Assembly (NCBI RefSeq): GCF_024502345.1
Contig: NZ_JALDNN010000001.1
Source of the DNA: Escherichia coli
GTDB lineage: Bacteria > Pseudomonadota > Gammaproteobacteria > Enterobacterales > Enterobacteriaceae
Strand: one strand, 5' to 3'
Length of the DNA: 64,000 nt
The position numbers were made by a program, and so were the translations under genes. This document shows, piece after piece, positions 48,596 through 53,383 of the stretch (within the stretch, counting starts at the first letter, position 1; each line of letters starts with the position of its first letter). Below the pieces are notes generated by a model. That model saw only the letters and a program-made list of their open reading frames with translations. It was not told the DNA's origin and searched no databases.

Positions 48596-48622
48596 ATCAT
48601 CACTTAACCAGAACGTGATGAT
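48596..48622 (-). terminator. Conserved hairpin downstream of immunity gene 4 (island left edge)
   Basis: ATCATCAC-N11-GTGATGAT inverted repeat ~28 bp after the immunity stop; related to the hairpins after the other three immunity genes. Confidence 0.45.
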
Positions 48623-48649
48623 TTTCAGGTGACAGATTCTGTTTAGAGT

Positions 48650-48886
48650 TCATTCTGAATCTTTGAACAAAGGCAATCCTTGCGAACGCCGCCATTCTTT
48701 GACGATTTTCAGGATGTTTTCAGGTTTACCATCTTCTGGGGAATTAGGATAGAAAATGGGATCTCCCTTTTTAGGATGTTCAGTAATTTTAATGAAATGA
48801 TCCACTAAGGTATCGAGATATTTTTCTAATTTTTTCCCTTTTAGGGATTTATCTTTGCTAGTTGCATTTACTATCTCCTCAAGCAT
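48650..48886 (-). CDS. Colicin-E-type DNase immunity protein homolog, orphan cassette 3 (5' end apparently frameshifted)
   Basis: Im9-like C-terminal region (ENILKIVKEWRRSQGLPLFKDSE) and ITEHP core; the canonical ATG (48939-48941) is out of frame with the body, leaving an internal Met start (MLEEIV). Confidence 0.6.
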   Translation of the reverse strand: MLEEIVNATSKDKSLKGKKLEKYLDTLVDHFIKITEHPKKGDPIFYPNSPEDGKPENILKIVKEWRRSQGLPLFKDSE

Positions 48887-48986
48887 TTCAAGAAATTCAC
48901 CTTCTGTGTAAAAATATATTTTAAATCATGCATATACATTATCTCCTGTAGTGAATTTCATCATGTAGTCGAGACGTAACAATCCT

Positions 48987-49175
48987 TTAATTATCAATAT
49001 CATAAATTTCGCCACCACATTCAATCGCAACACTATGATATATATGGAATTCTTCAACAATTTCCTTAGATCCATAATGCCAACCTTCAAGAGGCGCTTT
49101 TGCGATTAATCCTTGTTTTATACGTGTTTGGTTACCAGTTGAAAACTGCGCTATCAACTCCGGATACTGACTCAC
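48987..49175 (-). pseudogene. Orphan C-terminal fragment of colicin-E-type HNH DNase domain (cassette 3)
   Basis: Begins at the junction LWLEVSQ(Y)PELIAQFS shared with the full-length toxin; no ATG (GTG only); in-frame TAA replaces the Leu codon after ..YDIDN, with the remaining LHDEIHYRR codons intact downstream. Confidence 0.6.
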
Positions 49176-49287
49176 CTCCAGCCAAAGGGTATCGGTGAAA
49201 GCGGGAAATTGATAAAATAACCTAATGAGATTTCAGTATTTTACCTGTTTTTTAAGAGCACCCACATTATTATTTTATGTTATTAAC

Positions 49288-49314
49288 ATCATCGCATTAG
49301 CCAGACGCGATGAT
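49288..49314 (-). terminator. Conserved hairpin downstream of immunity gene 3
   Basis: ATCATCGCAT-TAGCCAG-ACGCGATGAT (one stem mismatch). Confidence 0.45.
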
Positions 49315-49341
49315 GTTCCATATATAGTTTTATTATCTACT

Positions 49342-50330: not shown

Positions 50331-50570
50331 TTAACTATCTCCTGTAATAAATTTCATCATGCAAATGAGGTGTGCCCTCCTTAAATTATCAATATCGTAA
50401 ATTCCGCCACTATATTCAATCGCAACACGATGATCCATGTGGAATTTTTTAACGATTTCTTTAGTGCCATAATGCCAACCTTCAAGTGGTGCTTTTGCGA
50501 TTAATCCTTGTTTTATACGTGTTTGATTACCGCTTGAAAACTGCGCTATCAACTCCGGATACTGACTCAC
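50331..50570 (-). pseudogene. Orphan C-terminal fragment of colicin-E-type HNH DNase domain (cassette 1)
   Basis: Identical in translation to the 49633-49872 fragment; GTG at the junction, same 3' frameshift. Confidence 0.6.
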
Positions 50571-50683
50571 CTCCAGCCAAAGGGTATCGGTAAAAGCGGG
50601 AAAATGATAAAATAACCTAATGAGGCTTCAGTATTTTTACCTGTTTTTTAAGAGCAATCACATTATTATTTTATGTCATTAAT

Positions 50684-50710
50684 ATCATCGCATTAGCCAG
50701 ATGCGATGAT
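50684..50710 (-). terminator. Conserved hairpin downstream of the cognate immunity gene
   Basis: ATCATCGCAT-TAGCCAG-ATGCGATGAT, 28 bp after the immunity stop. Confidence 0.45.
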
Positions 50711-50737
50711 GTTCCATATATAGTTTTATTATCTACT

Positions 50738-51022
50738 TTATTTAGAGTCTTTAAACAAGGGTAACCCCTGTGAACGCCGCCATTCTTTGACAATTTTCAG
50801 GATGTTTTCAGGCTTATCATCTCCTTGACTTTTAGGGTAGAAAATTAGATCGCTCCCTGACGGATGCTGTGTAATTTCAATAAAATGATCTACTAATGAA
50901 TCCCAGTACATTTCTAGCTCCTTACCTTTTAAGGATTTTCCATCTTTCATAGATGATCTCAATCCGCCTAAAAAATTAAGAAATTCATCCTCGGTATAAT
51001 CCTGGAGCTTTTCTTTAAACAT
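50738..51022 (-). CDS. Cognate colicin-E-type DNase immunity protein (Im9-like)
   Basis: 94 aa: DYTEDEFLNFL, ITQHPSGSDLIFYP, VKEWRRSQG align with Im9; ATG 2 nt after the toxin stop, with AGGAGA Shine-Dalgarno inside the toxin's last codons. Confidence 0.85.
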   Translation of the reverse strand: MFKEKLQDYTEDEFLNFLGGLRSSMKDGKSLKGKELEMYWDSLVDHFIEITQHPSGSDLIFYPKSQGDDKPENILKIVKEWRRSQGLPLFKDSK

Positions 51023-51024
51023 AT

Positions 51025-52806
51025 TTATCTCCTGTAGTGAATCTCATCGTGTAGTCTGGGGGTAACAATTCGTAAATTATCAATATCGTATACGCTGCCG
51101 CCATATTCAATTGCAACACGATGATGTATCTGGAATTTTTTAACTATTTCTTTAGGGCCATAATGCCAACCGTCAATAGGTGCTTTTGCGGTTAATCCTT
51201 GTTTTATACGTGTTTGGTTACCACTTGAAAACTGCGCTATCAACTCCGGATCCTGACTCACCTCCAGCCACAGCGCCTCGCGAAACTCATCAAAGGTTTT
51301 AAACTCCCGTCCGCGCAATTTATCAGCAATATGCGCCGGGATTGGCGCGCCGTTGCCGTTATTGGATACCGACATATCCAGCCAGCGAGTTCCTGATGAA
51401 AGCGGGACGCCGCGCCCTGTTACAACACCAGGCAGCTTTCGCGGATCCTCCTTCAGGTAAACATAGATGGGCTTAATACCGGATCCCGCCGGAAAAACCA
51501 GAATATAATCGTTGAATTCTTTCGGATCAGGAACCGGGAATGGCGGCGTGGTATAGGTATCTGTACCGTCCGGAATCGGCGTCACCAGAATGGTGGGCTG
51601 ATCCAGCGGCGGCCTGTCGTTACCGGTATGGCCCGGAACATTCCCATGTTCCGGATTTTCCGGCGTCCAGGTAATCAGGGGGCCATCGACATCGTGAGCG
51701 GGGGTAAATTCATAACGCTGCGTCTGCTCGTTCCACTGCATGTTCGCCACGCGGACTTTTTCATACGGCGTACCTTCACCCGTATGAACACCATACACCT
51801 GAGGCTTGCCGTGAATATCAGTTCCCCAGAAAAAACGTACCCGGGTGGTGGCGGTACTGCCTGCTAGTGCTTTCTGCCGCAGTTCTTCCTCATACCAGAA
51901 CTCATCACGTCCGGGCACGCGAGCACTGCCCTCGCCCGCAGAGGGAATATACAAAGCAGATGCCAACGCACCGATGTAAGAGCCTCGGGTTGCACTGAGT
52001 ATGCCACTGAGCGACCATTTTCCCCATATTTGAGCCGCCAACACACTACCCGGAAACAGTAGCATGGTTTGAGCTTCTGCGGGTTGCCCGACATCGTTAG
52101 CCTCGGGATGGTGGTATCCACAGCAGTCATCAACCACTGGCTGAGCAAAAATCGCTACTTGACCGAAGTTTTCAGCGGGTTCTTCTGCCGTTCCAGCATC
52201 TGTACATCCCTTCTCCTTCAGACAGGATTTGGCATAGACCGGGTTAACCGCTGGTGAAGAGAGTGGAAGGTTAACAACTGGTAGAGGTTCAGGCTTAAGA
52301 TTACTGGCAGGTGGGCTTTTAGGCGGAATAAATAAGCTATTATAGCCAGCAGGAAAGGTCAACCAGTCAAATTCCGTATTGGCTATTAGATGTTTACATA
52401 ATATGTAGTGATAATCGACAGTTACACATTCGGTAGGAAGATTATTGTCAGAAATGTTTACATGAATAGCAGTTAATGAAGCATTTCTTAGCTGAATATA
52501 ATAATACCGTTCCCAGCGCCCGCTTTTATTTATACGATACAAATCGATTTCAATAAATAACCGCTCATTCTGATTGATGGCATTAGACAGTAGCGGTGAG
52601 CTTTTATCAATGAGTTTGCAAAATTGTAGCCCCTGTAGATTAACGCCATTACCAGTACTGGTAATGGCGTTGGTGAGTGCAAAGGCAAAAATTTCATCTT
52701 CATGGCCAACCTGCCAGCGATTACCAACCGACGCATACGTCCCACAGCCTGAAGAAATATCGCCCTGCTTCTCACCGATTATTCTCAGGTAAACAATATC
52801 GCTCAC
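51025..52806 (-). CDS. Hcp (T6SS TssD) fused to C-terminal colicin-E9-type HNH DNase domain (Hcp-extended toxin)
   Basis: N-terminal ~150 aa match Hcp (MSDIVYLRIIGEKQGDISSGCG.., GHEDEI, KLIDKSSPLL, LRNASLTAIHV); C-terminal ~135 aa align with the colicin E9 DNase domain (VTGRGVPL..WLD..GAPIPAHIADKLRGREFKTFDEFREALWLEVSQDPEL..HHRVAIEYGGSVYDIDNLRIVTPRLHDEIHYRR); Pro-rich linker between. Confidence 0.85.
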   Translation of the reverse strand: MSDIVYLRIIGEKQGDISSGCGTYASVGNRWQVGHEDEIFAFALTNAITSTGNGVNLQGLQFCKLIDKSSPLLSNAINQNERLFIEIDLYRINKSGRWERYYYIQLRNASLTAIHVNISDNNLPTECVTVDYHYILCKHLIANTEFDWLTFPAGYNSLFIPPKSPPASNLKPEPLPVVNLPLSSPAVNPVYAKSCLKEKGCTDAGTAEEPAENFGQVAIFAQPVVDDCCGYHHPEANDVGQPAEAQTMLLFPGSVLAAQIWGKWSLSGILSATRGSYIGALASALYIPSAGEGSARVPGRDEFWYEEELRQKALAGSTATTRVRFFWGTDIHGKPQVYGVHTGEGTPYEKVRVANMQWNEQTQRYEFTPAHDVDGPLITWTPENPEHGNVPGHTGNDRPPLDQPTILVTPIPDGTDTYTTPPFPVPDPKEFNDYILVFPAGSGIKPIYVYLKEDPRKLPGVVTGRGVPLSSGTRWLDMSVSNNGNGAPIPAHIADKLRGREFKTFDEFREALWLEVSQDPELIAQFSSGNQTRIKQGLTAKAPIDGWHYGPKEIVKKFQIHHRVAIEYGGSVYDIDNLRIVTPRLHDEIHYRR

Positions 52807-53383
52807 TTTATTTTATTCCCGTTTATCCTTAACTTATTTCCATTAAATAGAAAACTTATTTCTCGATCAATTATAAACGCTTTTAATGAAAAATCATTTC
52901 TATTACTTAACGTTTTCACTCATCTCGCAATATTATATTTAAATACTTACGTTACAAGCCCACTGCATTATTAACATCTATTTATTTTTATATGGCATTT
53001 CGTAAGATTATCGTGCTGGTACCTAAGGCATGTTGTTCAGCAGGCAAATAAATCCGGTTTATATACTCTAAATAATTCGAGTTGCAGCACATGTAACTTG
53101 AAGAATGACAAGTATAGCTAGTTAAAACAGCATGTTATCCTACTTAAAGTATCTATAAAATGTGAAAAAAACTTACAATTGGTTTTTTTTTATCCAAAAA
53201 ATCAACGCATCTACATAAAGCAGGTGCATTCCCGGGCACATACCATTATCTTGTGATAGTTAAAAGTAGCATTATCATAATTCAGTTACATGAAACGTAA
53301 AGAAATCAATACAACAAACGGAATTGCAAACTTACACACGCATCACTGCGTAGATCAAAAAAACAATCACCGCACGAGGTTTC

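Follow-up and report, generated by a model that had tools for sequence, protein, structure and literature searches.

PAIusp, an accessory island encoding the Usp DNase and its immunity proteins, between pdhR and aroP in an Escherichia coli contig

What is the run of minus-strand genes that lies between pdhR and aroP in a 64-kb stretch of Escherichia coli DNA (contig NZ_JALDNN010000001.1; this whole stretch is called the window below, and all coordinates refer to it), and what might it do? An earlier note on the window had described an AT-rich block of about 4.3 kb (48596-52900) and had singled it out as the most unusual structure present. We find that the block is PAIusp, the accessory island of Usp (the uropathogenic-specific protein) together with its Imu immunity proteins, which is already known, characterized, and ordinary. 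The best explanation of the locus as a whole, to which we assign a probability of roughly three in four, is that it is PAIusp with a Usp DNase fired by a type VI secretion system (T6SS), an Imu1 protein that protects kin, and downstream cassettes that are displaced toxin tips.

The open reading frame (ORF) map places the minus-strand genes between pdhR (47430-48194) and aroP (53384-54757). When reference usp and imu sequences were compared with the window, they matched at the same place and in the same architecture, and nothing contradicted the identification. The UTI89 locus has the same order: aroP comes first, then a 593-aa "tssD", then three immunity genes with two small ORFs interspersed among them, and finally pdhR. 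PAIusp of uropathogenic E. coli (usp plus imu1-3, also called orfU1-3; strains Z42, UTI89, and TA211) shares site, gene order, and orientation with the window, and the DNase fragment ORFs of the UTI89 island lie between immunity genes as they do here. The aroP-pdhR intergenic region is the site reported for all usp+ genomes, and PAIusp has been described as an island of about 4 kb containing usp and imu1-3, with GC values close to those of the window (PMC7142922); usp is divergent from aroP in the window, as in UTI89 and in that report. The island, or most of it, was detected in 946-1052 of 5426 complete E. coli genomes (~17-19%), and PAIusp is also present in environmental and animal isolates. 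In island-bearing genomes the PGAP names are tssD, bacteriocin immunity proteins, and "pyocin-S2/colicin E7-DNase domain-containing protein". The rarity implied earlier, when the block was not recognized as PAIusp, is not supported for an island that is both published and this frequent.

The limits of the island were set by comparison with strains that lack it.

48376-53296, no strand: segment differing from island-free E. coli, by BLAST against the empty-site strains STN0717-11 and PapRG-04-4
48227-48241, no strand: PdhR operator ATTGGTCTTACCAAT, a perfect match to ATTGGTNNNACCAAT, in the flanking context upstream of pdhR and outside the island

In both STN0717-11 and PapRG-04-4 the pdhR-aroP intergenic region is 540 bp long, which bears out the reading of the block as inserted DNA when set beside K-12-like genomes. 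Window 48195-48375 is a 100% match for the first 181 bp of the empty site, and 53297-53383 matches its last 87 bp at 97.7%, so that identity ends at 48375 and restarts at 53297. Between these points 4,921 bp stand in place of ~272 bp of the empty site, which retain only weak residual similarity to the island segment, apart from a 36-bp patch that includes the -10 hexamer of the aroP P3 promoter and matches window 53214-53249. The segment at 48376-53296 is thus PAIusp together with its diverged intergenic DNA, and the differing DNA measures 4.9 kb rather than the ~4.3 kb first proposed. Its GC content is 0.398, compared with 0.506 for the whole window. The description of the block as AT-rich fits the immunity array (0.36) and the intergenic spacers (0.31-0.35), but not usp (0.485) or its linker and inner-membrane translocation part (0.52-0.55). 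The PdhR operator, which had been said to be intact, is so: it is the sole perfect match to the consensus in the 64-kb window and falls within the 181 bp that window and island-free site share without a mismatch, upstream of a pdhR start at 48194, as claimed.

The largest gene of the island encodes the toxin.

51025-52806, minus strand: usp (uropathogenic-specific protein; Hcp-ET3-4 type; PGAP tssD), 593 aa, GTG start, intact
52369-52806, minus strand: N-terminal Hcp (T6SS tube protein) domain of Usp, aa 1-146 (TIGR03344; PF05638; PDB 6a2v, 3he1, 5mxn)
51457-51882, minus strand: S-type pyocin or inner-membrane translocation (IMT) domain of Usp, aa 309-450 (PF06958, 1e-40; PDB 3MFB, 7.7e-18)
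51034-51429, minus strand: colicin/pyocin HNH DNase domain of Usp, aa 460-591 (PF21431, 5.9e-42; colicin and pyocin DNases)

The predicted protein is identical to UTI89 Usp at 575 of 593 positions (97%) and to that of FDAARGOS_943 at 590 of 593. Pfam assigned three domains, T6SS_HCP PF05638 (aa 28-139, 1.5e-12), Pyocin_S PF06958 (309-450, 1e-40), and Col-Pyo_DNase PF21431 (460-591, 5.9e-42), which are the domains reported for Usp: Hcp, S-type pyocin, and colicin nuclease (PMC7142922). On the NCBIfam model TIGR03344 (TssD/Hcp) Usp scored 124.7 bits (cutoff 58.9) over model positions 1-160 of 167. The Hcp domain is complete, N-terminal, and joined to a C-terminal toxin, with an immunity gene adjacent. 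The fusion of Hcp to an HNH DNase that had been read from the letters was therefore upheld by Pfam, TIGR03344, and PDB sequence matches; the central Pyocin_S domain had been overlooked.

In PDB sequence comparisons the DNase domain matched colicins E9, E7, and E2 and pyocins AP41, S2, and S8 (E 1e-31 to 1e-26); Usp also matched klebicin G. The HNH motif residues H561, H562, N577, H586, and H590 are all present and align with those of E9 and AP41. The nuclease and immunity biochemistry of Usp has been published (PMC3685522, PMC3917654): mutagenesis of the HNH motif showed that non-specific DNA degradation by Usp needs the H-N-H residues (PMC3685522), which are H561/H562, N577, and H586 when the 593-aa protein is numbered, all of them kept in the window protein. 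Homologous IMT and HNH DNase domains with conserved H-N-H residues occur in E-group colicins (E7 and E9, with Im7 and Im9), S-pyocins (S2, AP41, G), and klebicin G. The pyocin-S plus colicin DNase module is also common to Usp and VPA1263, a T6SS antibacterial DNase effector of Vibrio parahaemolyticus that lacks an Hcp fusion; residues 199-590 of Usp matched the VPA1263-type model NF047924 with E = 2.9e-63, but at 214 bits, far under the family cutoff of 900. The exact allele of the window (WP_256632838.1) is rare, being found on one contig in a collection of 15 billion proteins, whereas thousands of assemblies carry that of UTI89.

Immunity genes follow usp on the same strand.

50738-51022, minus strand: imu1, the cognate immunity gene, 94 aa; 100% identical to UTI89 Imu1 (PF01320, 8e-30)
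50040-50330, minus strand: imu2 copy 1, 96 aa (PF01320); 98% identical to UTI89 Imu2
49342-49632, minus strand: imu2 copy 2, 96 aa (PF01320); 100% identical to copy 1 and 98% to UTI89 Imu2
48650-48933, minus strand: imu3 (Imu3-type), frameshifted, by alignment with UTI89, FDAARGOS_943, and TUM2830

All four immunity ORFs (78-96 aa; imu1, imu2 twice, and imu3) match Colicin_Pyocin PF01320 and have in common an invariant C-terminal stretch of ~23 residues. The profile searches for Hcp, colicin DNase, and PF01320 each supported the assignments that had been made from the letters. Imu1, whose gene begins 2 nt past the usp stop codon, is a colicin-type immunity protein encoded directly downstream of its toxin, as are the homologous four-helix immunity proteins of colicins and S-pyocins; its PDB sequence matches are the pyocin AP41 immunity protein, Im7, and Im9 (E 1e-20 to 1e-16), in agreement with the Im9-like cognate gene described earlier. 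Usp could not be maintained in E. coli without orfU/imu genes, and OrfU1 binds Usp tightly and reduces its nuclease activity (PMC3685522). In imu3 a 7-bp deletion (TAAAATA; window 48925-48933) shifts the frame right after codon 4. The remaining ORF (48650-48886; 78 aa) starts at an internal ATG, lacks the first 18 residues, and is 98% identical to UTI89 Imu3. PADLOC models of anti-phage defence gave no match for Usp, Imu1, or Imu2, and a defence system of that kind was set aside.

How would such a toxin reach its target? Usp would form part of the Hcp tube, or be transported by it, in a T6SS whose genes lie elsewhere in the genome, and firing would carry it into nearby bacteria; passage of the DNase through the inner membrane would be aided by the pyocin-S domain, the DNase would then degrade the target chromosome, and Imu1 would shield kin cells. 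Both the complete Hcp domain, which scores above the curated cutoff, and the reported Hcp-ET experiments point towards such a system, and it is plausible that one encoded outside the window delivers Usp. Usp has been described as an evolved Hcp, or Hcp-ET (PMC4436062; PMC9040868; PMC6730261, citing Ma et al. 2017). In the Hcp-ET scheme of Ma et al. 2017, as given in PMC6730261, UTI89_C0121 (Usp) is Hcp-ET3-4, a type with an Hcp N terminus, "pyocin S3" plus colicin DNase, and repeated immunity genes. PMC6730261 reports Hcp-ET proteins, UTI89_C0121 among them, as antibacterial effectors, with interbacterial antagonism for ET3/ET4 toxins. It also records that T6SS2 dependence has been demonstrated for Hcp-ET1, a dependence that for Usp is only an analogy. 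An identity of the window protein with Hcp-ET1 was excluded: Hcp-ET1 is an Hcp-HNH (PF01844) fusion of O104:H4 and of Shiga toxin-producing and enteroaggregative E. coli that has no pyocin-S domain, whereas the window encodes the pyocin-S plus colicin-DNase type of UTI89_C0121. The pyocin-S domain is the IMT domain; it is required for the FtsH-dependent import of pyocin G and occurs in 97.6% of Colicin-DNase T6SS effectors, of which Usp is shown as an example (PMC9040868).

The colicin-like C terminus suggests another route, by which Usp would be a released, diffusible bacteriocin that enters through an outer-membrane receptor as colicins and S-pyocins do, with no need of a T6SS. The C-terminal two thirds of Usp (IMT and DNase) do resemble klebicin G, pyocins, and colicin E9, and early work proposed a bacteriocin role for Usp (PMC3685522, PMC3917654). 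However, colicins and pyocins carry receptor-binding and outer-membrane translocation domains, and in Usp a complete Hcp domain stands in their place: Pfam gave Hcp, Pyocin_S, and DNase only, and no receptor-binding, outer-membrane translocation, or Tol/Ton-box domain was found. Further, the ORF map holds no lysis-like ORF after the immunity genes, the usp locus is chromosomal, SOS regulation has not been reported for it, and transcription has been traced to aroP P3 with TyrR and H-NS rather than to an SOS promoter (PMC7142922). We consider the bacteriocin route very improbable.

T6SS delivery itself has to be weighed against several considerations. The firing apparatus in the source strain is unproven, as no T6SS gene lies within the 64-kb window. 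The absence of T6SS core genes, stated in the earlier note, agrees with the ORF content and with collinearity to annotated genomes: the window follows the FDAARGOS_943 stretch from fhuA to pdhR at 98.9%, a region without T6SS genes, and its right side follows the aroP-to-guaC stretch of PapRG-04-4 at 99%, the window ORFs being those of the fhuC/fhuA-to-guaC core region. A 2015 review states that experimental evidence for Usp secretion is lacking (PMC4436062), the support from the Hcp-ET work of Ma et al. 2017 is second-hand, taken from PMC6730261, and much of the Usp literature concerns a genotoxin for mammalian cells and not an antibacterial weapon (PMC3917654, PMC7142922). A simple colicin-like immunity model may not be valid for every Imu protein, and the imu3 frameshift raises the possibility that part of the array may be decaying and not selected. 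In favour of the route, UTI89, the reference host, has a complete T6SS cluster at aspV, ~117 kb from usp.

After imu1 the island continues with two identical pairs of a 79-aa and a 96-aa ORF, followed by a 62-aa and then a 78-aa ORF. The smaller ORF of each pair, and the 62-aa ORF, are homologous to the C-terminal part of the Usp DNase.

50331-50570, minus strand: orphan DNase C-terminal fragment B, 79 aa; protein identical to fragment C
49633-49872, minus strand: orphan DNase C-terminal fragment C, 79 aa; HH changed to DH
48987-49175, minus strand: orphan DNase C-terminal fragment D, 62 aa; homologous to Usp ~515-577; HH changed to YH; end of the domain missing

The three fragment-immunity cassettes described earlier are therefore present, although that description had missed that two of them are near-identical tandem duplicates and that the last immunity gene is frameshifted. 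All three fragments align with Usp from residue ~515, and DNA homology begins at a conserved LWLEVS junction. No orphan tip with an intact toxin domain was found, since all three have lost catalytic residues: in B and C the HH pair is changed to DH and a frameshift falls just before the last catalytic His residues, and D stops short of them. Among NCBIfam models, one for a T6SS DNase effector was weakly matched by fragment D. Judged from these changes, the fragments are inactivated relics.

A repeat finder resolved the array into tandem units of ~692-698 nt. The 698-nt unit at 49937-50634 differs from that at 49239-49936 at 6 positions, marking a tandem duplication of the fragment-imu2 unit. 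Published PAIusp islands have two or three immunity genes, whereas the window has four immunity ORFs through this duplication. All 6 differences fall within 108 nt, at 49959-50066 (49261-49368 in the other copy), in the 3' end of imu2 and the spacer downstream, and this clustering could mark a gene-conversion boundary. In none of the 5426 complete E. coli genomes did a single uninterrupted match with ≥95% identity cover the duplicated fragment-imu2 array. The closest complete genome, FDAARGOS_943, has one unit fewer, and complete genomes with four immunity genes have them in a different order (imu1, imu2, imu3-like, imu2-like).

Where might such cassettes come from? In FDAARGOS_144 a variant usp that differs mainly in its last 73 residues (50 of 73 identical) is directly followed by an Imu3-type gene (92 of 96 residues identical to UTI89 Imu3), and in published work each usp type (uspI, uspII, and the PAIusp subtypes) is linked to its own orfU (PMC3685522). 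The pairing in FDAARGOS_144 supports the view that each unit of fragment plus immunity gene derives from the tip of a former allele that was displaced. Homologous cassette ends are provided by the LWLEVS junction on one side and by the immunity genes' invariant 3' end on the other. The downstream cassettes would thus be leftovers of earlier toxin tips pushed out by recombination, each with a Usp fragment from LWLEVS onward and then an immunity gene; the immunity genes would be kept as added protection against other Usp variants, and copy number would have changed by unequal crossing-over between the ~698-nt units. The orphan toxin-tip arrays of Rhs and CdiA loci and the orphan T6SS immunity genes of V. 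cholerae are similar, in that, downstream of the full-length toxin gene, truncated tips beginning at a conserved junction are each followed by their own immunity gene. The Usp fragments differ from the Rhs/CdiA tips in being short (~60-80 aa) and in having lost catalytic residues and frame, so that a toxin would not be restored by simple recombination.

Whether the array is actively rearranging and selected, as an "immunity library" rather than debris, is a further question, and we regard such a library as possible, though doubtful. If it exists, the 698-nt duplication would be a snapshot of unequal crossing-over that tunes dosage or repertoire against rival Usp variants, and the cassette ends could also permit toxin-tip switching between uspI- and uspII-type alleles.

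At the aroP end of the island two regulatory elements were located.

53240-53245, minus strand: -10 hexamer (TGGTAT) of the divergent aroP P3 promoter, conserved with UTI89 and the empty site
53296-53313, plus strand: homologue of the aroP TyrR box, CGTAAAGAAATCAATACA, placed by position and consensus

In other strains usp is transcribed from aroP P3, which is activated by TyrR with aromatic amino acids (phenylalanine), repressed by H-NS, and induced at 37°C and by urea (PMC7142922). With the -10 hexamer conserved as in the UTI89 island, usp in the window would likewise be driven by P3 under TyrR and H-NS, as reported elsewhere. The sequence CGTAAAGAAATCAATACA has 3 mismatches to TGTAAA-N6-TTTACA, is not significant alone, and aligns with the TGTAAA-containing box of K-12-like strains and UTI89; its own first half is CGTAAA, a variant common to FDAARGOS_943. 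A search with the TyrR-box consensus returned 19 sites with 26 expected, no excess over chance, and because of this the box at 53296-53313 is assigned by positional homology. A scan of the island for consensus promoters and terminators likewise gave counts not above shuffled controls. The usp-aroP spacer contains ~50 bp (window 53057-53112) that are extra relative to UTI89 and ATCC 11775 and common to FDAARGOS_943; they lie on the downstream side of the P3 start, within AT-rich DNA from which H-NS sites have been reported.

Induction by urea and at 37°C suits a host niche and counts in favour of the proposal that Usp is mainly a genotoxin for host (mammalian) cells, a virulence factor of extraintestinal E. 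coli, with Imu proteins protecting the producer only and bacterial killing incidental. Purified Usp, or E. coli expressing usp, lowers the viability of human cells with caspase activation, and usp is linked to isolates from pyelonephritis, prostatitis, and bacteraemia (PMC4436062, PMC7142922, PMC3917654). Yet Hcp, pyocin-S IMT, and colicin DNase are all domains of interbacterial-competition systems, a set of differing immunity genes would be of use only against rival bacteria with variant toxins, and PAIusp has environmental and animal carriers as well. As the main function of Usp, host-cell genotoxicity appears unlikely to us; genotoxic and antibacterial roles are not mutually exclusive.

The locus might instead be a decaying, non-functional remnant in the source strain. 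In line with this, imu3 is frameshifted, three of three DNase fragments are inactivated, the TyrR-box homologue differs in its first base from K-12 and UTI89, and the window holds no T6SS. Against it, the usp ORF is full length (593 aa), its product is 97% identical to the Usp that has been studied and keeps all HNH residues, imu1 matches its UTI89 counterpart at 100% identity, neither copy of imu2 is damaged, and the P3 -10 hexamer is conserved. Decay of the whole locus is a reading in which we place scarcely any confidence.

Relative to UTI89 PAIusp the window has a 7-bp frameshift in imu3, a spacer ~50 bp longer, and a rare Usp allele. Together with the duplication and the TyrR-box base, these are ordinary allelic variation, and the window contributes only a minor structural variant. 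The main value of the locus is annotation: the PGAP label "tssD, type VI secretion system tube protein" hides the virulence marker usp and a DNase toxin that is not a structural tube protein. PAIusp can be viewed as a compact polymorphic-toxin island that has taken over a host promoter, aroP P3, and that adjoins core-metabolism genes with the PdhR operator undisturbed.

Other variable loci were noted in the window. Next to aroP, genes for a GPH:cation symporter and a GH43 glycoside hydrolase (54916-57272) are inserted between aroP and ampE. This insertion occurs in only 53 of the 5426 complete genomes and is independent of PAIusp, since it is present in PapRG-04-4, which lacks usp, and missing from UTI89, which has usp. 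At the left end (1-1543), the 3' parts of fhuC and fhuA belong to a minority allele that is ~87% identical to the allele of most E. coli and has a match of at least 99% in 16 complete genomes; the window FhuA ORF has 729 aa, compared with 747 aa in FDAARGOS_943. Its divergence suggests a recombined or diversifying allele of a phage/colicin receptor. Strain AL.H8 has the rare fhuA/fhuC allele and neither PAIusp nor the GPH/GH43 insertion. Finally, a seven-gene chaperone-usher fimbrial operon of the yad/htrE type (13511-20493) lies between folK and panB, as in FDAARGOS_943, and represents ordinary core-variable content.

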